From positions 71,070 through 135,069 of the forward strand of contig CASEKC010000001.1 in NCBI GenBank assembly GCA_949288485.1: 64,000 nucleotides of DNA. The letters run 5' to 3'. The notes beneath the pieces are model-generated. The model saw nothing but the letters and a program-made list of their open reading frames with translations. It was not told the DNA's origin and searched no databases. The stretch's first letter is position 1. The number at the start of each line of letters is the position of its first letter. The DNA comes from an uncultured bacterium (lineage in GTDB: Bacteria > Bacillota_I > Bacilli_A > RFN20 > CAG-826). Positions 988 through 39,077 of the stretch are shown piece after piece. A program made the position numbers and the translations under genes.

Positions 988-1014
988 TTAGCACCTTTTT
1001 CTTGACAGTGCTAA
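988..1014. promoter_or_regulatory. CIRCE-like inverted repeat 1 (HrcA operator), TTAGCACCT-N9-CAGTGCTAA
   Basis: Close match to the CIRCE consensus TTAGCACTC-N9-GAGTGCTAA, located directly upstream of hrcA. Confidence 0.7.
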
Positions 1015-1030
1015 TACTTATAATTATTAT
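1003..1030 (+). promoter_or_regulatory. putative sigma-70 promoter, TTGACA-N16-TATTAT, for the hrcA-grpE-dnaK-dnaJ operon
   Basis: -35 TTGACA at 1003-1008 lies inside CIRCE copy 1. TATTAT at 1025-1030. Confidence 0.4.
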
Positions 1031-1034
1031 ATTA

Positions 1035-1061
1035 TTGGCACTTGAAAGAGTATAGTGCTAG
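1035..1061. promoter_or_regulatory. CIRCE-like inverted repeat 2, TTGGCACTT-N9-TAGTGCTAG
   Basis: Second 9-N9-9 inverted repeat with a CIRCE-like half-site (GCAC...GTGC), between the promoter and the hrcA ATG. Confidence 0.5.
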
Positions 1062-1068
1062 TAAGAAT

Positions 1069-2124
1069 ATGGATTTAAATAGAAAGCAAAAAATACTTAA
1101 ACTTATTATTGAAGATTTTGTTAAATATGCTGAACCTGTTGGCTCTGAATATTTAATTAAAAAATACAAACTTCCTTATTCTAGTGCAACCATTAGAAAT
1201 GAAATGGCTGAATTAGAAAAGGATGGTTTGCTTGAAAAAACCCATACTTCAAGTGGTAGAGTCCCATCAACAAAAGGTTATCAATACTATATCGATAATC
1301 TTAGAGCTAAAAAAGTTGATGAGAAATTTAAAAATGAGATTCAAAGTATTTTTTCATCTTCTAAATCGGTTGAAGAAGTTATTAAAGAAAGTTGTGAAAT
1401 TTTATCTTCTATGACTAATTTAACAAGTATTGTTCTAGGTCCAAGTTCATCTGAAGAACGTTTATTAAGTATTCAGCTTATTCCTTTAACTAATAATAGT
1501 TGTTCAGCAATATTTGTTACAGATAAAGGATATGTTGAGAATAAGACATTTATCTTAAAAGACAATGTTTCGATGAAAGATGTAAAGAATTGTCTTGAGA
1601 TGCTTGATAAAAGATTAAAAGGAACGTACGTTAGTGAATTAGTTGATAAATTAGAATCTTTAAAACCTATATTTAAAGATTATATTGATGATTATAATTA
1701 TTTATTCACATCATTAATTAAAACTTTTTATGATTTTGCAAAATCTAGAAGCACAATTTATGGAAAAGAGAACATGCTTGTTCAGCCAGAGTTTAAAGAT
1801 GATGCAGAAGAATTGAAAAAATTGTTTGAACTTTTCTCAAATCCTGATCAATTAAATGATTATATAAAATTCTCAAAAAATGATATTATTGATGCTTCTG
1901 ATGTAAATAGTGATTTAAAGGATTTAACTATTATATCTAAAGATATTGAATCAAACGGAAATTCTTTAGGAAAGATTGCAATTATTGGACCTAAACGAAT
2001 GGATTATGAAAATGTATTGTCTGCACTTGAATATACAATAAATGAATTAATTAAACATTTAGGTGATTACGAAGATATTGAAGACGATGAAGACGGAGGA
2101 AATGGAAATGATGGAAGAGCATAA
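1069..2124 (+). CDS. hrcA: heat-inducible transcription repressor HrcA
   Basis: HrcA-like sequence (winged-helix N-terminus, LSxxQ...). Start moved to the ATG at 1069 so that the CIRCE repeats lie in the leader. Canonical position before grpE. Confidence 0.9.
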   Translation: MDLNRKQKILKLIIEDFVKYAEPVGSEYLIKKYKLPYSSATIRNEMAELEKDGLLEKTHTSSGRVPSTKGYQYYIDNLRAKKVDEKFKNEIQSIFSSSKSVEEVIKESCEILSSMTNLTSIVLGPSSSEERLLSIQLIPLTNNSCSAIFVTDKGYVENKTFILKDNVSMKDVKNCLEMLDKRLKGTYVSELVDKLESLKPIFKDYIDDYNYLFTSLIKTFYDFAKSRSTIYGKENMLVQPEFKDDAEELKKLFELFSNPDQLNDYIKFSKNDIIDASDVNSDLKDLTIISKDIESNGNSLGKIAIIGPKRMDYENVLSALEYTINELIKHLGDYEDIEDDEDGGNGNDGRA

Positions 2125-2866
2125 AGAAGGTTGTTGCTGTCACAATCACGATGAATCTTGTGGATGTGAACATAACAATGAACATAAGCACGATGAATGT
2201 GGATGTGAACACAATCATGAGTCATGTGGATGTCAACATCATCATGATGAAGAAAATTGTGAATGTGGCCATAAACATGAAGAAAAATATTGCTGTGAAA
2301 ATGAAAAAGAAAATGAAGAACCATTAGATATGAAAGCTTCATATAAGAGAAAATTAGCAAAAAAAGATGATGAAATATCTAAATTAAAAAACGATGTTGA
2401 ACATTGGAAAAATGAATATTATCGTGTTTATGCTGATATGGCTAATCTTAGAAAAGATATTCAAAAAGACCATAGTGAAGCTATTAAATATCGTTTAGAA
2501 GGATTCGTTTCCGATTTAGTAAGTGTTTTAGATTCATTCGAAATCGCTTTAAAACATGATCCTAAAACTGAAGAAACAAAAAACTTCTTAATGGGATTTA
2601 AATTTGTACATTCTAATTTATTAAATATTTTATCAAATGAGGGTATCCAAATTATTGAACCTAAAGTTGACGATAAGTTTGATGAAAAAGTAATGCAAGC
2701 TGTTGAAAAGGTTCAAGATGATGGAGAAGAAAATTTAGTAAAAGAAATTATTTTAAAAGGTTATAAACTTCACGATCATTTAGTTAGACCAGCAATGGTA
2801 AAAGTAAGTGCTCACGAAGTAGAAAATAAAAATGAAGAAAACGGCGAAAGCCATCAAGATAAATAA
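2108..2866 (+). CDS. grpE: nucleotide exchange factor GrpE with a Cys/His-rich N-terminal extension
   Basis: C-terminal 180 aa is canonical GrpE (coiled coil plus beta domain). RBS GGAGGA at 2095-2100. Start could be 2102, 2108 or 2111. Overlaps the hrcA stop. Confidence 0.9.
   Translation: MMEEHKEGCCCHNHDESCGCEHNNEHKHDECGCEHNHESCGCQHHHDEENCECGHKHEEKYCCENEKENEEPLDMKASYKRKLAKKDDEISKLKNDVEHWKNEYYRVYADMANLRKDIQKDHSEAIKYRLEGFVSDLVSVLDSFEIALKHDPKTEETKNFLMGFKFVHSNLLNILSNEGIQIIEPKVDDKFDEKVMQAVEKVQDDGEENLVKEIILKGYKLHDHLVRPAMVKVSAHEVENKNEENGESHQDK
2120..2300 (+). repeat. tandem ~33-36 nt coding repeats (gaatSttgtggatgtgaacaYaaY...) encoding CGCEHN(H/N)E-type Cys/His motifs
   Basis: Direct nucleotide-level repeat visible in the grpE 5' region. 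Protein segment: EGCCCHNHDESCGCEHNNEHKHDECGCEHNHESCGCQHHHDEENCECGHKHEEKYCCEN. Confidence 0.6.
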
Positions 2867-2888
2867 ATTTAGGAGGAAATAATATTTT

Positions 2889-4751
2889 ATGGCAAAAGAA
2901 ATTATTTTAGGTATCGATTTAGGTACTACAAACTCAGTTGTTTCTTATTTACAAAGCGATGGAACTGTTAAAGTTATTCCAAACCCAGAAGGAACAATGA
3001 CAACTCCATCAGTTGTTGGATTTAAAGCAAAAGGTGAAGAAATTGTTGGTAATGCTGCAAAAAGACAAGCTATTACAAACCCAGATACTATTTCATCAAT
3101 TAAAAGAAAAATGGGAACTGATGAAAAAGTTCATATCAATTGTTTAAATAAAGATTTCACACCACAAGAAATTAGTGCAAAAGTTCTTGCTTATATGAAA
3201 TCTTATGCAGAAAAAAATATTGGTCATGAAGTTAAAAAAGCAGTTATTACAGTTCCAGCTTATTTTAATGATTCACAAAGACAAGCAACAAAAGATGCTG
3301 GTACAATTGCAGGACTTGATGTTGTAAGAATTATTAACGAACCAACAGCTGCTGCATTAGCTTATGGTTTAGGCAAAGATAAGAGCGAAAAAATTTGTGT
3401 CTTCGACCTTGGCGGTGGCACACTCGATGTTTCAATTCTTGACATTGGGGACGGAACATTTGAAGTCGTTTCTACATCTGGCGATAATAAACTCGGTGGT
3501 GATGACTGGGATAATGTCGTTGCTGATTGGATTAAAGCTCAAATTAAAATTCAACATGGTGTAGATATTAATGACAACATGGCATTACAAAGATATAAAG
3601 ATGCTGCTGAAAAAGCAAAAATCGAATTATCTTCTAACTTAGAAACTACAATTTCATTACCATTTATTGGTATGGGTTCTAATGGTCCTATTTCTTTTGA
3701 AACAACACTTTCAAGAGCTAAATTCCAAGAATTAACTAAACATTTACTCGATAGATGTGTTGCACCACTTGAAAATGCTATTCGTGATGCTAAATTAACA
3801 TATAACGATATTGACGAAGTATTATTAATTGGCGGTTCAATTAGAATGCCAGCTGTCCAAGAATTAGTTACTAGAATTACTGGTAAAAAATTAAATCTTT
3901 CTGTTAACCCAGATGAAGCTGTTTCTATTGGTGCAGCTTTCCAAGGTGGTATTTTAAGTGGTGATGTTAAAGACGTTATTCTTCTTGATGTTACACCTTT
4001 AACATTAGGTATTGAAACTATGGGCGGTGTTATGACTCCATTAATTCCACGCAACACAACTATTCCTACAACAAAATCACAAATTTTCTCTACAGCTGCT
4101 GATAACCAACCTGCTGTTGATATTATGGTTTATCAAGGTGAAAGACCAATGGCACACGATAATAAATTACTTGGTCACTTCGCTTTAACTGGAATTAAAC
4201 CAGCTCCAAGAGGAACTCCACGTATTGAAGTTACATTCAATATTGATGTTAACGGTATTGTTAAAGTTAGTGCTAAAGATTTAGATACACAAAAAGAACA
4301 AGAAATTACTATTTCTGGATCTAATGGATTATCTAAAGAAGAAATCGATAGAATGGTTAGAGAAGCTGAAGCTAATAAAGAAGCTGATGAAAAGAGAAAA
4401 GAAGATGTCGAAGTTAAAAATAAAGCTGAGTCCTTTATTGCTGAAATCGATAACGCTTTAAGAGAAAAAGGTGATTCTCTTGATCCAAAACAAAAAGAAG
4501 AAACTCAAAAATTAAGAGATGAATTAAAAACGGCTTTAGATAACAATGATATCAACACACTTAAAAATAGATTAAGTGAACTTGAAAAAGTAGCTGCTTA
4601 TATGCAACAAGCTCAAGCAAATCCAAATGCTCAAGCTAATACTTCTAATGAGCAACCAAATAGCCAAGATACATCTTCAAGTGAATCTAGCGATAACTCA
4701 TCAACTAAAAAAGATGATGATGTAATCGATGCAGATTTCACTGATAAATAA
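2889..4751 (+). CDS. dnaK: molecular chaperone DnaK (Hsp70)
   Basis: [16 protein letters not shown] and the EEVD-less acidic C-terminus. RBS AGGAGG at 2871-2876. Confidence 0.97.
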
Positions 4752-4809: not shown

Positions 4810-5958
4810 ATGGCTGCTAGTAAAAGAGATTATTATGAAGTTTTAGGTGTTAATAAAACTGCATCTCAAGATGAAATAAAAAGTGCTTATCGTAAATTAG
4901 CAAAAAAATATCATCCAGATAATAAAGAAACTGGAGATGCTGATAAATTTAAAGAAGCTACTGAAGCTTATTCTGTTTTAAGTGATGAATCAAAACGTAG
5001 AACATATGACCAATTTGGTCAAGCTGCTTTTGATCAAGCTAGTGGTGGTCAAAATCCATTCGCTGGAAGTGGTTTTGAAGGATTTAATTTTGGCGGCGGA
5101 GATTTTGATGATTTAAACGATATCTTATCAAGAATGTTTGGTGGTTTCGGAGGAACGTCTTCAAGAAGAAGTGCTTCTGGTTCATATAGAGGTGAAGATA
5201 CATTAATGCGTATTCGTATTAATTTTATGGATGCGGTTAATGGTAAAAAAGTTACTATACCAGTAAGTTATGATGAAAAATGTAAAGATTGTAATGGAAC
5301 TGGTGCTAAAAATGGTAATGAATTTGATAAATGTCCACATTGTAATGGTCGAGGAAGAGTGGTAAGACAAACTCAAACTTTCTTTGGAACAATGCAATCT
5401 GAAAGTGCTTGTCCTTATTGTGGGGGAAGTGGAAAATTAATCAAAACTAAATGTCCTACATGTGGAGGAAAAGGTTATACCCGCGTTAAAAAAGATATTG
5501 AAATTAATATTCCTGCCGGTATTCAATCTGGTCAACAAATTCGTGTTGCTGGAAAAGGCGGAAGAGGTATAAATGGCGGAGATAATGGAGATTTATATAT
5601 CGAAGTTATAGTAAGCGAACATAATTATTTCAAAAGAGATGGAAATAATGTTCATATTACAATTCCACTCGATTTTATTGATGCTGCATTAGGTATTACA
5701 ATTACAATTCCAACAGTTTATGGAGAGGTAGATTTAAAAATACCTAGTGGAACTCAACCAGATAGCGTCTTTAGATTGAAAGATAAAGGCATTAAGGAAT
5801 TAAGAGGAAACGGATATGGTGATGAATTTGTTCACGTTGAAGTTAAAATTCCTACCTATTTAAATAAAGATCAAAAGAAAGCTTTGGAAGAATATAAACA
5901 CGCAACATCTAAAGGTGATTCATTCTTTGATAAATTCATGAAAAATTTTAAAAAATAA
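4810..5958 (+). CDS. dnaJ: molecular chaperone DnaJ
   Basis: J domain with HPD, a G/F-rich region and four CxxCxGxG zinc-finger repeats. RBS AAGGGAGGAG at 4795-4804. Start at the ATG 4810 ([11 protein letters not shown]). Confidence 0.95.
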
Positions 5959-7982: not shown

Positions 7983-8741
7983 ATGAAATTATACGAATAT
8001 TTATATTTACAAAGAAATAAAAAATTTTTCAATAATAGCGAAGAATTTATCTTTTTTAGAAATTATAAGAGAGTTTTAGAAAACGAACCTTCCTTTTTAA
8101 TTTATGCTGATAATGAAGATTTGTTTGATATCATTAAAGCAAATATCATTATAAAAGGTATTATTAATAAAAATACTTTAGAGCAAATTATAGAAGAAGA
8201 ATTTTTGAATAAGAATTTTAATACCAACGAAGAAATTATTGAAAATATAAGAGAAAGAAGTTTGGATTTACCTTATTTAAAGGTCGAAGATCAAAAAATA
8301 TTTATCCCATTTTTCAATCGTTCAACTAATTTAGTTTATTCGAAAAATTATGAAGAAATTATGAATGAACCTTATCTTGATTTAAGGAAAAAATTCGCTC
8401 CTTTCATAGTAAATCCTTTTGAAACATATCAAATTGATTTATTTGACTCACTTTTTACAAAATTTGTTAGAGTAATGGAAGATGAAACGTCTGTCGCTTT
8501 TTATCATTATGATTTAAGAACAATTTTTATTATTAATAAGCAAGGTTATCTCGATAATTATATATGTCTTTTTGATAAACACTTAAAAAATCCATCAGAA
8601 GATCGAATTATTGATAGAATAAAATTAGTTATTAAGGAGTATTATGATAATAACTTAACAGGTTTTTTATATTCAATGTATGAAAATAATTTAATAAGTT
8701 ATTATGTTTATAGAAGATTATGCAAATGGAAAAAGATTTAA
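7983..8741 (+). CDS. hypothetical protein (252 aa), lineage-specific
   Basis: Long ORF in coding-dense context with no recognisable motif. Inserted between rsmE and mtaB, which are adjacent in Bacillus. Confidence 0.4.
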   Translation: MKLYEYLYLQRNKKFFNNSEEFIFFRNYKRVLENEPSFLIYADNEDLFDIIKANIIIKGIINKNTLEQIIEEEFLNKNFNTNEEIIENIRERSLDLPYLKVEDQKIFIPFFNRSTNLVYSKNYEEIMNEPYLDLRKKFAPFIVNPFETYQIDLFDSLFTKFVRVMEDETSVAFYHYDLRTIFIINKQGYLDNYICLFDKHLKNPSEDRIIDRIKLVIKEYYDNNLTGFLYSMYENNLISYYVYRRLCKWKKI

Positions 8742-11349: not shown

Positions 11350-12540
11350 ATGAGTTATTTTATTAGACAAATTGGAGAAAAAGATTGCGCAATTACTTCA
11401 CTTAAAATTTTATTAGCAAATATTTATAAAAGAAAAGATTTTCTTTTTTATCCTCAGGCAAACATAAATGAGGCGCTATCTTTAAAAGATGTAATTAGAA
11501 TAGCTAAAAATGAAGGTGTAGTTTTAAGTGCTTATCGATTGAAAAACAAAAATGAAATTAAAGAATTAAAGCATAAAAAATCTTTAATAGTCATTAAAAG
11601 AAGGAATATACTTCATTTGATTTATTTGAAAAATATCAAAAGAAGAGGAGTCGTAATTTTAGATCCAAAAATCGGAAAAGTATTTATGAAGTTTCAAGAT
11701 TTTTTCGAAATTTGGAATGGAGAAGTATTAGAAACAGTAAAAGTTAATGGAAGTAATTTTAATATTAAAAAGAAAAGAATCATTCATTTATATAAAGAAA
11801 TATTAATGATAGCTTTTCAAATTTTTACTTATTCTTTATTTTTGTGTGGATTATATTTTATTAATAATACGGTAGATTTTTTAATTCCTTTGGTTTTATT
11901 TATCTCTTTTATTTTTTCTTTACTATTATTTAATTATCTCTTAATAAATTTTATGAAAAAGATAGATAACGATTTATTTAAAGGAATTTATCGAAGTGAA
12001 GGAAATTTAAAGGAAAAATATTTAAAAATCACTAAATTAAAAACATTAATATTTACTTCACCTTTAGAACTAATATCATCTATTTTGTTAGTGACTTTTT
12101 CATTAAGTATTTTAGGTATCAATAGTTATTTAAGTTTAATAATTGCCTTTTTTGTTTTATTTATTCAATTTTTATTAAAAGTTATTAGTTCTTCGTATTT
12201 GGATTATAGAAAAAATTATATTGAAAATTGTGAAAATAATTTATTTTTAAGCGAAAATGAAGAAAATGCCTTATCTAATTTTAAAGTATTAAATGATGAA
12301 GTATATAAATTTATAACTTTAAATAATTTAAAAAAATTTTTACTAATTTTAATAATTATTGTTGGATGCTTATTTCTATGTTCCTTTGAAAAAGAAATTT
12401 CCTTAAATTATCTTTTATTTCATGTTTTTGCAATTTATTATATTTCATCTAATTTTGATAAGATTTTAGATTTTAATAAAAATTATGAAGAATTAAATTA
12501 TTTAAAATCGATTTACTATTATTATTCGAAAACTTATTAA
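11350..12540 (+). CDS. standalone peptidase C39-like domain membrane protein (no ABC ATPase domain)
   Basis: N-terminal IRQIGEKDCAITSLKILL (Q...DC of the C39 bacteriocin-processing peptidase), candidate His (NILHLIYL) and Asp (VVILDP), then about five TM helices. Stops 28 nt before ybeY with no nucleotide-binding domain. Confidence 0.6.
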   Translation: MSYFIRQIGEKDCAITSLKILLANIYKRKDFLFYPQANINEALSLKDVIRIAKNEGVVLSAYRLKNKNEIKELKHKKSLIVIKRRNILHLIYLKNIKRRGVVILDPKIGKVFMKFQDFFEIWNGEVLETVKVNGSNFNIKKKRIIHLYKEILMIAFQIFTYSLFLCGLYFINNTVDFLIPLVLFISFIFSLLLFNYLLINFMKKIDNDLFKGIYRSEGNLKEKYLKITKLKTLIFTSPLELISSILLVTFSLSILGINSYLSLIIAFFVLFIQFLLKVISSSYLDYRKNYIENCENNLFLSENEENALSNFKVLNDEVYKFITLNNLKKFLLILIIIVGCLFLCSFEKEISLNYLLFHVFAIYYISSNFDKILDFNKNYEELNYLKSIYYYYSKTY

Positions 12541-16342: not shown

Positions 16343-18239
16343 AAATAACCAAAATACTGATTTATTCGATTCAATTTTAAGAAAAGTCGATATCGTTGAT
16401 ATTATCGGACATTACTTAAATTTAGAAAAAAAAGGACGTAATTATACTGCTTTATGTCCTTTTCATGATGATAAACAACTAGGTAACTTTTTTGTTTCTC
16501 AAGAAAAACAAGTTTTTAAATGTTTTGCTTGTAATAAAAGTGGTAATGCGATTGCATTTGTAAAAGAAAAAGAAAGATGTTCTTGGATTGAAGCAGCAAA
16601 AAAGGTTTGCGAAATCGCTAATATTGTTGAACCAGGATTGGAAAATTTTAAAGAAACAAAAAAAGATCCTAAAGTTGAGAAAACTTTGCAAATTTTAAAA
16701 GATATTTCACTTTTTTATTCATTATCTCTTTTTCAAAGTGATGAAGGAAAAGACGCTTTAAATTATTTGCATAATAGAGGCTTAAATGATGATATTATTC
16801 GACATTTTGGAATTGGTTATGCTTTAAAAGATGGTTCGAAGGTTATTGAATTCTTAACGAAAGAAAAAAATTATTCGTTAAAAGAAATTGATGAAACCGG
16901 AATTATTGATTTAAAAAACAATGTTATAAAAGATAAAAATTATGGCCGTATAGCTTTTTTTATAAAAAATAGTAATAACGAAGTTTGCGGTTTTAGTTGC
17001 AGAATATTTGGCGATAAAAAATCTGATGCTAAATACGTTAATACCTCAAGTACAATTGTTTTTAATAAATCCAATATTTTATATAACTATTTCGACGCTA
17101 TTAGTGAAAGTGCGAAAGTAGGGTATGTATATTTATTAGAAGGATTTATGGATGTTATTGCTTGTTATCGAGCAAACATTAAAAGTGCAGTTGGACTTAT
17201 GGGAACCTCACTAACGAAAAATCATTTAAAAATGTTAAAAGATTTGAAATGTGAAGTTCGTTTATGTCTAGATTTAGATAAACCTGGTCAGAATGCAATG
17301 TATAAAGCTTTTCCTTTATTAGAAAGTTATTCAATTCCTTATCGAGTTGTTAATAATGATGTTGATTTTAATTATAAGGATAGCGATGAAATTATAGATC
17401 ATCTAGGAAATGAAAAATTAATATCATATTTATCAAATGTGACTGATAAATTAAATTGGTTAGTTAATTATTTTAAGAAAAATCTTGATTTAAATATTTT
17501 AGAAAACAAAGAGAAGATGATTAATTTCTTCGTTACAATTCTAAAAAATAACGCTGATCAAATTTTAGTTGATTCCTATATAAAGGAATTAGAAAAAGTT
17601 ACAAATGTCTCTTATAACGTTATTAAAGACATGATTGATAAAGCAAAATTAGATACGAGTATCAACGTAGATAATTTTGAAATCGAAGATAAAGAATATA
17701 TAGATGAATTTGAATCTTCTAAAAATGAAATTAAAAGAACAAAATTACGTGAATCTAAAATTATAAAATCGGAGCGTTTGCTCCTAAGTTATATGTTAAA
17801 AAATGAAGAAGCAATTTCAATTTTTAAAGAAAAAATTAATTCATTTTATACTCCGATATTTAGCGAACTATATGAGATAGTTTCACAGTATATAAATGAA
17901 AAAAATGATTTTGCCTTTAGTAAAGATAAATTAGAAAATATCGTTAATAGTTCTTCATGTGATAAAAAAGAAGATTTAAAAATAGAAATTAGCAAGATCT
18001 TCACATTAAAAAATTATGATTCTTACAGTAAAGATATTGTTGAAGAGTTAATTGAAAATATTAAATTTGAACGAAATTTAATAAATATTAAAAAAAGTAA
18101 TCAGGAATTACTTAAAAATAAAAATGGTGACAGTGATGAATATTTACTTTCATTATTATCATCATCAAAAAATAAAATGGCAGAAAAAACGGCCTATGAA
18201 AGGGGGAAATATGGCAAAAACAGCAAAAAAATTGGATAA
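16326..18239 (+). CDS. dnaG: DNA primase DnaG
   Basis: Zinc ribbon CPFHDDKQ...CFAC and a TOPRIM domain. Probable TTG start at 16326 overlapping the glyQS stop. Confidence 0.85.
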
Positions 18240-19479
18240 AGAACAACTCACAAAAGAAGTTGGTAAAATCGTAAAGAATAAAGGTTTTGTTGATGAAGAT
18301 TCTGAAGAAGAAGGAATTGAAACACTTGATGCGATTTTAAAAAGATTTTTAAAAGAAAATGCTGATACTAAAGAAATAGATCAAGATTTTTTCATTGAGT
18401 CAACACGTAGATTCGATCTTTCTGATGAAGACATTGATAAAATTTTCCAATATTTTACTAGCAACGGATATAGTTTAGTCGGAGAAGGAAATAGTGATGA
18501 TATTGAATTTGATGAAAATTCCATTAGTGAAATAGAAGACATGGGTGATATGGATGATTTTGACGAAGATATTGATGGTGATGACGTTGATGGTTTAAAT
18601 ATCGACGTTGATAATCTTGATTCTTTCGTTTTAAGTGATGTTAAAGTTAATGATAGTGTTAAATTATATTTAAAAGAAATCGGTCGTGTTAAATTATTAA
18701 AAGCTGAAGATGAAAAAGAATTAGCTGTTCGTATTTTAAAAGGTGATCAAAAAGCTAAAAACGAATTAATTAATGCAAATTTACGTTTAGTTGTTTCAAT
18801 TGCAAAACATTATTTAGGTAGAGGTATGCCTCTTTTAGATTTAATCGAAGAAGGAAACATGGGCTTAATGAAAGCAGTTGATAAATTTGATTATACTAAA
18901 GGTTTTAAATTTTCAACTTATGCTACTTGGTGGATTCGTCAAGCTATTACAAGAGCTATCGCCGATCAAGCTAGAACTATTAGAATTCCTGTTCATATGG
19001 TTGAAACAATTAATAAAATTACAAGAGTTCAACGTCAACTTACTCAAGAATTAGGAAGAGAACCAACACCAGAAGAAATATCTTCAAAAATGGATGGTGC
19101 TATGACTCCTGATAGAATTCGTGAAATTCAAAGAATTGCCCTTGAACCAGTTTCATTAGAATCTCCAATTGGTGAAGAAGATGATTCTCATTTAGGTGAT
19201 TTCGTTGAAGATAAAGAAAGTCTTTCTCCAACCGAATTTACATCAAAAACTATGTTAAGAGAAGCTTTATATGATGTAATGAGCAACTTAACAGAAAGAG
19301 AAGAAAGAGTTTTAAAATTACGTTATGGTCTTGACGACAATAAACCTAGAACATTAGAAGAAGTAGGAAAAGAATTCGGCGTTACTAGAGAAAGAATTCG
19401 TCAAATTGAAGCTAAAGCTATAAAAAAATTAAAACATCCTACAAAACAAAAGAAGTTAGATGATTTTTCAGTTAATTAA
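18211..19479 (+). CDS. sigA: RNA polymerase sigma factor SigA (RpoD)
   Basis: Regions 1.2-4.2 complete, including [18 protein letters not shown] and the 4.2 helix-turn-helix. RBS GGGGG at 18203-18207. The track ORF from 18124 overlaps dnaG. Confidence 0.9.
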
Positions 19480-19499: not shown

Positions 19500-20657
19500 A
19501 TGAAAAAACAACTTAATACTTTAATAAAAAATACTTTGATAAAAGAAAGTTTAGACGATAATACCATTTCATTAATATTATCGTCCTTAAACGATCTAAT
19601 TTCTGATGATGAAAAAAATAAAATTATCGATAAAGACGATTTTTATGATTGTTTAGACGAGTTTTCATTAAAAGAATCAACCATTAAAAAGATTAAAGAT
19701 ATATTAATAAAAAATAACTTTAAAATTATAAATCACGATGAAGTAATTGTTGAAGATATTAATGATGTTTTGGAAGATGAAGAAGATATTTCAAATAACG
19801 AGAAGACTTTTTCAAGTGAAAAAGCTAATGATGATTTGCGACAATATTTTAAAAATATTGGAACCAATAAACTTTTAACTCCAAAAGAAGAAATTGAAAT
19901 TGCTAAAAGAATAAAAAATGGTGATGAAAATGCAAAAAATGAGTTAATAGAAGCCAATACTCGTTTAGTTATTTCAATTGCAAAAAGATATGTAAATAGA
20001 GGAGTTCCTCTTCAAGATTTGATTCAAGAAGGAAATTTAGGTTTAATTCGTGCAGCTGAAAAATTCGATTATAAATTAGGTAACAAGTTTTCAACTTATG
20101 CAACTTGGTGGATTCGTCAAGCTATAACAAAAGCTATTGCTGATCAAGCAAGAAATATTAGAATTCCGCTTCATGTAATTGATATTTTAAATAAAATTTC
20201 TAGAACAAAGAATGAGTTTATTCAAGAAAAAGGGTATGAACCAACCGCTGAAGAAATTTATTTAAAATTAAATAAAACTATACCAATAGAGAAGATAGAT
20301 GCCGCCTTACTTTTAGGTAAAGACACGATTTCCTTGGAAAGTAGTGTTGGTGATAATCAAGATGCTGAATTAGGGGATTTTATCGAAGATAAAACCGATA
20401 ATTCACCAATAGATTTTACTTCAAAAAATGACTTAAATCTTTTAATAAAAGATGCACTTTGTACATTAGATGAAAGAGAAAAAGATGTTATTAAACTTCG
20501 TTATGGTTTAGATGATGAAGAAGAACATACTTTAGCCGAAATTGGAAAAAAATATAATATTTCGCGTGAAAGAGTTCGACAAATTGAAACAAAAGCTCTT
20601 TTCAAGTTAAGAAAAAGTTTAAACGAGAAAAAAATATATGATAGCGAAGAGAATTGA
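19500..20657 (+). CDS. second complete sigma-70 family factor (RpoD paralog, group 1/2-like)
   Basis: Regions 1.2, 2.1-2.4, 3 and 4 all present. Region 2.4 ([25 protein letters not shown]) is nearly identical to SigA. Only 20 nt after the sigA stop, with no evident RBS. Confidence 0.8.
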
Positions 20658-36617: not shown

Positions 36618-37148
36618 CTAACAAATATAATTGTTTTTCTTATAATTTCTATTTAATTCAAACTTTTTATTAGCTAATCTTAAATAATATAATTGTATTC
36701 TTTCAACTTGATCTATATTTAAATATCCATAACCTCTAGAAAGTATTTTATTATCTTTAATATTAACCAATTTCTTATTGATCATTTTTATTCCTTCTAA
36801 GCGAGCATAAAATATATTATTTCTACTAATTAATGGCAAAATCCCTATTTCAAGGAATTTTTTACAATCAACTTTAGTGTTCATCTTATTAAATGTTTCT
36901 AAAGGGCAAATAAAAACTGTATTATCGTTATTCATGCTATCTTCTAAAGATAAAGCTAATTTAAATATAGGATTATTATTGTTATCAAATCTTGATACAT
37001 ATTGAAATATTTGGCCCTTGTAAATTGGAAAATTATTTGTTGGTAATGGTGATCTATAACCATTGTTTAGTGAATCTTCGAGATCTTTATTAACGTTTTT
37101 AGCATATAAAGTCCGTCTTGATAAATGATAAGTATTAATGAAATCCAT
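36618..37148 (-). CDS. hypothetical protein (176 aa, soluble), lineage-specific
   Basis: Start placed at MDFINTYHLS, preceded by AGGAGG-tagaaat-ATG. The track's upstream TTG extension is unsupported. No recognisable domain. Confidence 0.45.
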   Translation of the reverse strand: MDFINTYHLSRRTLYAKNVNKDLEDSLNNGYRSPLPTNNFPIYKGQIFQYVSRFDNNNNPIFKLALSLEDSMNNDNTVFICPLETFNKMNTKVDCKKFLEIGILPLISRNNIFYARLEGIKMINKKLVNIKDNKILSRGYGYLNIDQVERIQLYYLRLANKKFELNRNYKKNNYIC

Positions 37149-37193
37149 ATTTCTACCTCCTAATAGCATATAAAATGTTAATTTATTAAGCTT

Positions 37194-37325: not shown

Positions 37326-38078
37326 TTATGTAATTTTCTTTTTTAATATAGATAAAATAAAATCAATAATAACAAAAATAATTATAATAATAATTATTAT
37401 TGCAAACATCATTGGATAATCAGCATTTTGATTTGCAACATAAATTAGTCTTCCAATTCCCCAAATACTACTTCTTCCAACAATTATTTCACTCATAACG
37501 GATATTTTAATTCCCATTCCTATTGAGTTAATTATTGCAACGTTTAAATACGGAAAAGTTAAAGGTAATATTACTTTAAAAATAGAATTTGGACGATAAA
37601 ATCCTTCTAAACGAAGACTATTTTTAATATTTTCATCAATATTTATTACTCCTCCAACAATTGCTTCATAAATGAGAGGAAAAATAACAATATATGATAT
37701 TAATACTGAAAAAATATTTGGTGAAAATATCGAAGAAATTATAAAAATAAAGCAAGGAACCGGTATAAAACGCATTAAATTTAAAAATGGTTTTAAAAAT
37801 TTTCTTGATTTAATAAATAAACCTGAAAGTAAGCCAAATATAATTCCTAAAATTATCGAAATTATTATTGCTACAATTGTTCTTAAAAATGTTAAACCAA
37901 AAGCTTCATAAGTGCTTTCTAAAGTTAATAAATTTAATAACGCATTAAAAGTTTGATCAATTGTTGGTAAATAAATTTTATCAAATAAAGATGAAGAGAT
38001 TAACCAAATTAAAAGAATAGTTAAGATACCTAACCATTCAAAGAGGATATTCCAACTATTCTTATATTTCTCTTTCAT
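37326..38078 (-). CDS. ABC transporter permease (NitT/TauT-like, six TM helices)
   Basis: Binding-protein-dependent permease signature and hydrophobicity pattern. No ATPase gene is adjacent. Confidence 0.65.
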   Translation of the reverse strand: MKEKYKNSWNILFEWLGILTILLIWLISSSLFDKIYLPTIDQTFNALLNLLTLESTYEAFGLTFLRTIVAIIISIILGIIFGLLSGLFIKSRKFLKPFLNLMRFIPVPCFIFIISSIFSPNIFSVLISYIVIFPLIYEAIVGGVINIDENIKNSLRLEGFYRPNSIFKVILPLTFPYLNVAIINSIGMGIKISVMSEIIVGRSSIWGIGRLIYVANQNADYPMMFAIIIIIIIIFVIIDFILSILKKKIT

Positions 38079-38093
38079 TATTCTATTTTACTA

Positions 38094-39077
38094 TTAATTT
38101 TGATTAACAATAGATAAAAATTGATTGATTACTGTTTCATCCATTTCTTCATTAATTGATGTTGGAACAACTCCAAATCCGTTTCGACCATCTTTTTGAA
38201 CATTTCTAATTAATGTTGAATTGAAACCAAATAAAGATGTTTGTTCATTTTGATCAGAAATTTTTTCTTCAATTGCTGAAGCAACATTTTCTGGATTATT
38301 AATAACATCATTAACCGCGTTATTAATTCTTTCCAAAATTTTATCAACTACTTCTTCGTTTTCTTTTTCAAATTCTTTTCTAACGAATAAAGCAGCTTGA
38401 GGAACATAATCAAATGTATAAACATCACTATTTTTTTCTTTAAAGGCTTTTTGTAAATTTATATCTAAAATTTTAGTAGTATCAATACCATTTTGAGACC
38501 ATCTAGCCATTAAATTTGTTAATTGAGGTTCACTAATTACTGTCCAATCAATTGTTTCGCCTTCAATTGTAAAATTAGATTCTAATTTTAAAAGTTCGGT
38601 TTGCAAATTTCCAACAGCATCAAAATAATTTTCTTCCTTAATAATATCCCCATAAATATTATTAAACATTTTATTAGCTGTTCCTGTTTTTTGGAAAGAA
38701 TAGATATTATCTCCTTCAACAGGTATAGTTCCAGTTTCTTTATTAAAACCTAAAAGATGAAAATTTCCACCTGTAAGCATTAACTTAAATTCATATAATG
38801 GATTTTCTTGTTTCTTTAATATATTTGCTACTTGTGTTGAATCAAATACTAAAAAATCATAATTTTCATTGGAAAATTCTGGTGGAATAGTTGTTGGTGT
38901 TGTAGTTGTTTCAACATTTTCTTCAATTAAAATTTCCATATAAAGAGGTAATGCTGGAGCACCAACCGGCATTAATAATTTATAATCGAGTTTTTCGTTA
39001 TAAATGTTTGTAGAAGCGTGGCAACTTGTTAAAGTTGAAATAATAAGCACGCTAAAAAATAAAATACTTTTTTTCAT
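38094..39077 (-). CDS. lipoprotein, putative ABC substrate-binding protein
   Basis: Signal peptide with lipobox LTSC. Location upstream of the permease. Confidence 0.6.
   Translation of the reverse strand: MKKSILFFSVLIISTLTSCHASTNIYNEKLDYKLLMPVGAPALPLYMEILIEENVETTTTPTTIPPEFSNENYDFLVFDSTQVANILKKQENPLYEFKLMLTGGNFHLLGFNKETGTIPVEGDNIYSFQKTGTANKMFNNIYGDIIKEENYFDAVGNLQTELLKLESNFTIEGETIDWTVISEPQLTNLMARWSQNGIDTTKILDINLQKAFKEKNSDVYTFDYVPQAALFVRKEFEKENEEVVDKILERINNAVNDVINNPENVASAIEEKISDQNEQTSLFGFNSTLIRNVQKDGRNGFGVVPTSINEEMDETVINQFLSIVNQN

Follow-up and report, generated by a model that had tools for sequence, protein, structure and literature searches.

A cysteine- and histidine-rich, possibly metal-binding insertion in the N-terminal tail of GrpE from uncultured gut Bacilli

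In the bacterial Hsp70 cycle, GrpE is known to act as the thermosensor, and direct action of its disordered tail on the substrate site of DnaK is a recent finding (PMC12915176). What is a dense array of cysteines and histidines doing in such a tail? The question is raised by the grpE gene in a stretch of 64,000 nucleotides (nt) from an uncultured bacterium (contig CASEKC010000001.1 of assembly GCA_949288485.1, positions 71,070 to 135,069), the whole of which is referred to as the window and gives the numbering used here. A first-pass annotation had noticed a Cys/His-rich N-terminal domain in front of the GrpE core. We found that this block is a selectively maintained, intrinsically disordered insertion of about 55 amino acids (aa), placed in the acidic N-tail of a GrpE that is canonical in other respects, and we lean towards a role in metal binding. 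The features concerned are as follows.

2094-2099, forward strand: ribosome-binding site GGAGGA of grpE, 8 nt upstream of the ATG at 2108
2108-2866, forward strand: grpE, 252 aa from ATG 2108; Pfam GrpE, best PDB match 4ANI, modelled with AlphaFold2
2132-2296, forward strand: Cys/His/Glu-rich block, aa 9-63, with 13 Cys and 12 His; no match in Pfam, in the PDB or by phmmer
2132-2310, forward strand: six direct copies of a 23-nt unit (TGTGGATGTGAACAYAAYCATGA-like) encoding the modules of the block, at a spacing of 27-39 nt and with 70-87% identity to the reference copy
2315-2332, forward strand: conserved EEP(L/I)DM motif with acidic residues on either side of hydrophobic ones, directly before the long helix; kept with or without the block
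2330-2812, forward strand: canonical GrpE core by AlphaFold2 and Pfam, with a long helix (aa 75-148), a helix at aa 155-177 and a beta domain reaching to aa 235

The Pfam GrpE profile (PF01025) matched aa 78-234 over profile positions 8-164 of 165, with an E value of 2.4e-42. The best PDB match was 4ANI, the Geobacillus GrpE in a DnaK-GrpE complex (E = 3.6e-28), and 1DKG was matched at E = 2.2e-12. In the AlphaFold2 model, built with 47 homologues, the core was predicted at a local confidence (predicted local distance difference test, pLDDT) of 84-94 with beta strands at residues 180-235, and residues 1-74 had a pLDDT of about 40-50 without secondary structure; the tail is predicted to be disordered. 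By family profile, predicted fold and the context of hrcA and its operator, CIRCE (controlling inverted repeat of chaperone expression), the grpE product is a canonical GrpE, for which nucleotide exchange on DnaK is predicted. The Cys/His block sits immediately N-terminal of the EEP(L/I)DM motif. In Escherichia coli, the disordered acidic N-tails of GrpE bind the canonical substrate site of DnaK via a short hydrophobic motif flanked by Glu, and promote substrate release (PMC12915176). By comparison with residues IIM17-19 of the E. coli protein (PMC12915176), EEP(L/I)DM is a candidate for the motif of the tail that binds the DnaK substrate-binding domain (SBD).

The tail as a whole (aa 1-75) contains 13 Cys, 13 His and 23 Glu/Asp, slightly fewer Cys and His than the 14 and about 15 counted in the first-pass annotation, and aa 8-64 (57 residues) hold 13 Cys, 12 His and 12 Glu. 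The GrpE core contains no Cys at all. In the rest of the window proteome Cys and His make up 1.1% and 1.4% of residues, respectively, so that the enrichment has a binomial P of about 1e-13 for each residue, and no other real gene of the 64 kb reaches a comparable Cys plus His density. The block follows a simple grammar, in which a Cys pair (CCC, CxC or CC) is followed within a few residues by HxH and then by Glu/Asp. Five to six such modules can be recognized by eye, four of them complete by a strict pattern match, and each module would offer a ligand set of the Cys2His2 type.

The modules are mirrored at the DNA level by the six 23-nt copies at 2132-2310. Direct repeats had been proposed from the first reading of the sequence, which is correct; the period given there, about 33-36 nt, is approximate only, as the spacing is 27-39 nt and Tandem Repeats Finder reports a period of 27 with 2.7 copies at 2179-2251. 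The block arose by tandem duplication of units of 27-39 nt. Its G+C content at third codon positions (0.175) differs little from the value for the core (0.14); thus the block looks native, with no sign of a foreign origin.

A repeat of this kind could in principle be a 5' leader or an RNA element in front of a GrpE translated from Met75 (ATG 2330), a possibility that we consider extremely improbable. Met75 is conserved and some database gene calls begin there (P0046). However, the ATG at 2330 is not preceded by a ribosome-binding site, and a strong GGAGG with its start codon is shared with relatives that lack the block: GGAGG was found 6-9 nt before the homologous ATG in 9/9 loci compared, block-bearing or not, and the start GGAGG-ATG-GAA-GAG is common to orthologous loci of both kinds. 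In the alignment, the block lies between a conserved M(M)EE(H/L)(K/N)E (such as MEEHKE) and the segment EEP(L/I)DMKASYK(R/K)KLAKKD, which leads into the long helix. We compared the reading frames across six block-bearing orthologues from genomes of 26-31% GC, and the grpE frame alone was open in all of them, its several indels all being in frame. The +2 frame (third forward) carried 11-18 stops across the block, and every other frame was closed in at least two of the six species. The conserved Cys codons, moreover, show synonymous changes. The mRNA at 2085-2335 does fold somewhat more stably than shuffled sequences (-50.3 kcal/mol, z = -2.46), as a leader might, but such a signal is expected from the self-complementarity of TGT with ACA and of CAT with ATG; with this as the probable source, an RNA-structure role of the repeats was set aside.

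An antisense open reading frame (ORF) at 2067-2360 (97 aa, His-rich) was also rejected, since its frame is interrupted by stops in L001, L004 and L005. Because the ribosome-binding site and start are shared, the frame stays open through in-frame indels, and the Cys are conserved with synonymous codon changes, the comparison of orthologues identifies the block as a genuine translated part of GrpE. Furthermore, the identical 252-aa protein was present on at least 22 contigs, from many independent samples, and the block is therefore not an artefact. On these points the first-pass annotation holds: the peptide it quoted is exactly encoded by the grpE frame, and its view of the block as a true N-terminal extension and not an artefact of the frame agrees with the start and the open frame shared by six species.

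How widely is the block distributed? The homologue set comprised the best 120 of 367 matches in a collection of 5.8 billion proteins. Among these 120, Cys/His were found in the tail only in the six closest proteins (P0001-P0005 and P0007, with 8-13 Cys); the remaining listed homologues, including those named in their sources as Ca. Onthovivens and Erysipelotrichaceae, have acidic tails free of Cys/His, mostly of 15-45 aa. A scan of one genome per GTDB species gave 80 related loci, and the block was present in five of them (L009-L013), all from metagenome-assembled genomes (MAGs) labelled as uncultured Bacilli or simply 'bacterium'. The full-length GrpE of these five, tail included, is at most 80% identical to that of the window, and the cores reach 93%. 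Tail-bearing species are represented among the MAGs CALVYH01, CASEVI01, CASGAB01, CALVMY01 and CASEST01. The restriction of the extension to one lineage, suggested earlier as a matter for ortholog comparison, was thereby confirmed, and the carrier lineage is that of uncultured low-GC gut Bacilli related to Ca. Onthovivens. As for their sources, several tail-bearing siblings (among L001-L005 and L094-L103) recur in two series of ENA sample accessions, ERZ16268xxx and ERZ17292xxx, and both P0004 and the window protein (P0121) occur in assembly ERZ17292901. This recurrence in the same sample series points to a radiation confined to one kind of host community.

In a neighbour-joining tree of HrcA, the GrpE core and DnaK, the window groups with L001-L004 at 99% bootstrap. 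This main clade, the tail-less L006/L007 and L005, whose tail is Cys-rich and His-poor (8 Cys, 3 His), form a trichotomy (58% vs 34% bootstrap), and hence a single gain followed by loss and two separate gains are equally compatible with the tree. Outside this group, two further loci carry a CxC-x5-CxC mini-motif directly before the long helix, with 4 Cys and 0-1 His: L067 (at about 2941-3040 of that locus) and L075 (at 2851-2960), with the sequences TCECKDNETCDCKDE and TCKCNENESCDCQDE. Both lie in an hrcA-grpE-dnaK context, one source being an Erysipelotrichaceae digester MAG and the other an uncultured MAG. Their cores are about 51% identical to that of the window, and dozens of Cys-free lineages stand between. 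To judge from these sequences, Cys-pair motifs arose in GrpE tails more than once, and the motif of L067/L075 looks like one of independent origin. The tails of the group are highly plastic in general, ranging from 6 to 108 aa. At the upper end of this range, L029 (at about 2680-3000) encodes a related GrpE with a hyper-acidic tail of about 108 aa, which consists almost purely of Glu, Val and Asp.

The mode of evolution of the block differs markedly from that of the core. Between species of the main clade the tail is 41-62% identical, as compared with 84-93% for the core. There are 15 invariant residues in the tail, six of which are Cys, and four of these six Cys columns show synonymous TGT/TGC variation. 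Cys are the best-conserved residues of the tail, and every main-clade species has 10-13 Cys and 7-13 His. As read from the alignment, this pattern marks selection that acts on the composition and the ligand residues, and not on a fold. Changes in length occur in whole units: compared with L001/L002, the window protein carries an additional CGCEH-type unit, and a 12-aa unit, GGEHCCNHEHNH, is missing from a single 233-aa protein of the P0004 cluster. Lengths do not vary within species; the full-length members of the window cluster all have 252 aa and 9/9 variants of the P0002 cluster have 243 aa. The block had been described as a recent repeat expansion, which is true of such single units but not of the block as a whole; the latter is common to five to six species with 84-93% identical cores and, from these comparisons, predates their radiation, so that only single-unit gains and losses are recent. 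Likewise, variation in repeat number between strains, which had been raised as a point to check, was seen only in the single P0004-cluster variant and not within the window and P0002 clusters.

We found no report of such a tail in literature retrieved for GrpE with histidine-rich, cysteine-rich or metal-binding as terms, and a Cys/His tail of the metal-binding type has apparently not been described for GrpE before. The closest likeness came from another protein family. When metagenomes were scanned with EEH(K/N)ExCCC in back-translated form, five loci were obtained, of which four look like chance matches. The fifth, L092 (ODWE01000467.1, 1151-2137), encodes an exporter of the cation diffusion facilitator (CDF) family, with Pfam Cation_efflux and ZT_dimer domains, followed by a beta-carbonic anhydrase gene. 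Its N-terminus is MEEHKEDCCCEHHHGHGCEGHEHHHEHEHGHHHHH, and the beginning of it, MEEHKEDCCCEHHH, is nearly identical to the start of the GrpE tail. The first 12 residues, M-E-E-H-K-E-x-C-C-C-(E/H)-H, are nearly shared, and in both proteins a run rich in Cys, His, Glu and Gly follows, which in the exporter forms a cytosol-facing N-tail. The carrier differs, being a membrane transporter of the CzcD/ZitB type; its tail is more His-dominated, and its host is Flavobacteriia-like with 42% GC. In its relatives from Capnocytophaga and further Flavobacteriia, the N-tails are generally rich in His and the C-tails contain CxC. Horizontal acquisition of the GrpE tail from a CDF gene was rejected, as the DNA similarity is confined to the 27-nt search pattern. 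The tail of L092 is an analogue and not a donor, a similar motif in a protein that handles Zn, Co and Cd.

Several other systems offer comparisons. The C-terminal domain B of Helicobacter pylori HspA (a GroES protein) is 27 aa long, of which 4 are Cys and 8 are His. With two Ni bound per monomer, it functions in Ni storage and detoxification, and the vicinal Cys of HspA form disulfides (PMC5116745). The analogy with HspA, drawn in the first-pass annotation, is apt in composition: in both cases a His/Cys-rich, lineage-restricted terminal extension is carried by a heat-shock co-chaperone, with CC and HxH/HKH between acidic or basic residues. Unlike the domain of HspA, the block described here is N-terminal, on GrpE, some 55 aa long, and has 13 Cys and 13 His in its tail, repeated CxC units and far more acidic residues, and its host is not known to be Ni-dependent. 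The His/Cys-rich tail of SlyD takes up several Ni or Zn ions with micromolar dissociation constants, and the metal modulates the activity of the enzyme (PMC3292732); both SlyD and HspA are Ni chaperones, for hydrogenase and urease (PMC3292732, PMC5116745). The likeness to GrpE is that of a disordered Cys/His(/Asp/Glu) tail on a folding helper; carrier and terminus differ, as SlyD is a peptidyl-prolyl isomerase of the FKBP type, and SlyD is tied to [NiFe]-hydrogenase maturation, a link not seen here. No homology to HspA domain B or to the SlyD tail was found, and that class is defined by composition, not by descent.

With metallothioneins, including the bacterial SmtA/BmtA type, the tail shares CxC/CC/CCC motifs, disorder in the apo form, repeated modules and, as in some bacterial forms, His ligands. 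Metallothioneins, however, stand alone as small proteins in which Cys makes up about 30% and acidic residues are few, whereas the tail is fused to GrpE and has 17% Cys, 17% His and 31% Glu/Asp. There was no Pfam metallothionein match at E <= 1; the tail is not a member of that family, although it may work like one. A CxC motif is also present in the Zn centre of Hsp33. Within the GrpE family, activity is tuned by oxidation in vertebrate GrpEL2, via a disulfide of Cys87, and in yeast Mge1, via oxidation of Met155 (PMC12987570). Hsp33, GrpEL2 and Mge1 thus resemble the present protein as chaperones or exchange factors with sulfur residues near the stalk or tail that interacts with DnaK; in those proteins one or a few residues in folded regions are concerned, as opposed to the long multi-Cys/His disordered tail described here.

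We cautiously favor the hypothesis that the block gives an HrcA-regulated dimeric co-chaperone a tail whose thiolates and imidazoles bind soft or borderline metals, namely Zn(II), Ni(II), Co(II), Cd(II) or Cu(I), and we give it slightly more than even credence. The reasons are the occurrence of CxC/CC/CCC and HxH amid Glu/Asp, together with predicted disorder as is typical of metallothionein-like tails, the precedents of HspA and SlyD, and the similar N-terminus of the CDF exporter. Several observations weigh against it. The more distant Cys-bearing tails, those of L005, L067 and L075, are His-poor, and fit a thiol or redox role at least as well as Ni/Zn storage. The likeness to the exporter is partly one of construction, as the search pattern was taken from the GrpE tail and the DNA similarity ends with it. 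The tail alone had no match in a word-indexed search, in an exhaustive phmmer search of 1.84 billion representatives, in the PDB (E <= 10) or in Pfam (E <= 1), a weak negative in that composition-bias filters probably suppress even self-like matches. Finally, no gene for metal homeostasis or a Ni enzyme (urease, [NiFe]-hydrogenase, metal transporters) was recognized within the 64-kb window and the flanks examined, in a survey where 10 ORFs were checked against Pfam and the others named from their N-terminal sequences alone; window and flanks contain housekeeping genes only, with no pointer to a particular metal.

If the tail binds metal, the dimer of this abundant protein, induced by stress, would gather 26 Cys and 26 His and could serve in metal buffering or sequestration. 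The block lies within the tail that in E. coli transiently occupies the substrate cleft of DnaK, and metal loading, or thiol oxidation with release of metal, might compact this tail. A compacted tail would probably alter the GrpE-stimulated release of substrates, and the Hsp70 cycle would in this way be coupled to metal or redox status. A more far-reaching version, which we offer as doubtful speculation, is that the GrpE tail acts as a pseudo-substrate gated by metal, by redox state or by both. While reduced and metal-free it would act as the usual acidic tail that helps to eject DnaK clients; loaded with Zn, Ni or Cd, or oxidized, it would collapse, or the tails of the dimer would be cross-linked, so that release stalls and DnaK, under metal or oxidative stress, is turned into a holdase. 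The repeated invention of thiol motifs in anaerobic gut Bacilli, namely in the main clade, in L005 and in L067/L075, would then have served this purpose.

An alternative, which we regard as unlikely but worth serious thought, is a thiol redox switch in strict anaerobes. Here the Cys pairs, possibly holding Zn as in Hsp33, would form disulfides under oxygen or reactive oxygen species, the tails would compact or cross-link, release by GrpE would be turned off and DnaK would hold its clients, metal storage being incidental. Cys are the most conserved of the tail residues, the His-poor tails of L005 and L067/L075 retain Cys pairs only, and the tail adjoins those parts of helix and tail that touch the DnaK SBD (PMC12915176); Cys87 of GrpEL2 and Met oxidation in Mge1 (PMC12987570), as well as the disulfides of HspA (PMC5116745), are precedents. 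For disulfides, however, the 13 His in HxH arrangement and the abundant Glu/Asp of the main clade would be superfluous and point to metal coordination, 13 Cys are far beyond the needs of a switch, and no thioredoxin- or peroxiredoxin-type neighbor was seen in the window. The redox switch and metal binding are compatible and not mutually exclusive.

It is improbable, in our judgment, that the block is a neutral low-complexity expansion, in which a short unit would have multiplied by replication slippage within a disordered tail that evolves fast, and would have been tolerated since the sequence of the tail is of little consequence. The wide range of tail lengths in the group, including the poly-acidic tail of L029, the rapid evolution of the block by whole units and the absence of the block from the sister lineages L006 and L007 would all agree with such an origin. 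Yet Cys and His are rare in the proteome, and 10-13 Cys have been kept in every main-clade species while the tails are 41-62% identical and the codons of invariant Cys vary synonymously; no length polymorphism was seen in the at least 22 contigs of the window species or in the nine P0002-cluster variants, Cys-pair motifs have arisen independently in L067 and L075, and unused free surface thiols are usually selected against. More speculative, and in our view quite improbable, is a client-directed role as a metallochaperone or in Fe-S transfer, in which the tail would hand Zn, Ni or an Fe-S cluster to DnaK-bound clients, as in the Hsp70 systems of Fe-S biogenesis. The position of the tail beside the substrate site of DnaK (PMC12915176) and the Ni chaperones SlyD and HspA (PMC3292732, PMC5116745) would be in keeping with this, as would the Fe-S/radical-SAM enzymes of the window, HemW, a MiaB-like protein, IspG and IspH, which were named from N-terminal sequences, a Pfam radical-SAM match being at hand for the HemW orthologue only. 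CxC/HxH repeats in an acidic disordered tail, however, correspond to no known Fe-S motif, and no target enzyme was identified in the window.

If the preferred metal-binding interpretation is true, metal load or redox state would be a second input at the control point of GrpE, and the short list of chaperones with metal-binding tails, HspA and SlyD, would gain a member from the Hsp70 system. That Cys-pair motifs recur in unrelated GrpE tails suggests a function on which selection can act. On the practical side, the tail is predicted to be a compact natural peptide that binds multiple metals, and the protein, being small, lends itself to expression. Should it be a metal sponge only, it would be a modest addition to known biology.

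With a GC content of 26%, the window opens with a heat-shock operon of the Firmicutes type within its first 6 kb. The order is hrcA-grpE-dnaK-dnaJ, preceded by the end of hemW (to 984), and the synteny hemW-hrcA-grpE-dnaK-dnaJ was present in all eight orthologous loci fetched. The remaining features of the operon are as follows.

988-1014, forward strand: CIRCE operator (HrcA binding site) 5' of hrcA, TTAGCACCTTTTTCTTGACAGTGCTAA against the consensus TTAGCACTC-N9-GAGTGCTAA, with 3 mismatches
1002-1030, forward strand: best promoter of the sigma-70 type for the operon, TTGACA-17-TATTAT, matching 11/12 consensus positions and ranking top of the scan; overlaps CIRCE
1035-1061, forward strand: second, degenerate CIRCE-like inverted repeat, TTGGCACTT-N9-TAGTGCTAG, found by eye; its 4 mismatches to the consensus place it below the 3-mismatch search
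1069-2124, forward strand: hrcA, heat-shock repressor, Pfam HrcA (E = 1.3e-45)
2889-4751, forward strand: dnaK, with Pfam HSP70 in orthologous loci
4810-5958, forward strand: dnaJ with the CxxCxGxG zinc-finger region, with Pfam DnaJ, DnaJ_CXXCXGXG and DnaJ_C in orthologous loci

The CIRCE at 988-1014 is the sole match in the window with up to 3 mismatches, where shuffled sequences lead one to expect none. The stop codon of hrcA, TAA (2122-2124), overlaps codons 5-6 of grpE. In DnaK, HrcA and the GrpE core of the tail-bearing clade we found no Cys/His that co-evolve with the tail. At residue 432 of DnaK (4182-4184 in the window, in the SBD), a change from Gln to Ala is fixed in five tail-bearing species of the main clade, and L005 and all outgroups have Gln; a co-adaptation with the GrpE tail is possible.

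An alternative genetic code with TGA read as Trp was rejected, as table 11 leaves the long housekeeping ORFs uninterrupted and dnaG needs no read-through of TGA to stay open. Elsewhere in the window, three ORFs had no Pfam family (7983-8741, 36618-37169 and 38094-39077), the last of them a putative lipoprotein adjoining an ABC permease (37326-38078). A 396-aa protein (11350-12540) has an N-terminal peptidase C39 domain of the bacteriocin-processing type and no recognizable ABC transporter part. Directly 3' of dnaG lie two tandem full-length sigma-70 paralogues (18211-19479 and 19500-20657), each with regions 1.2, 2, 3 and 4, a pair that is unusual in a small, reduced genome.

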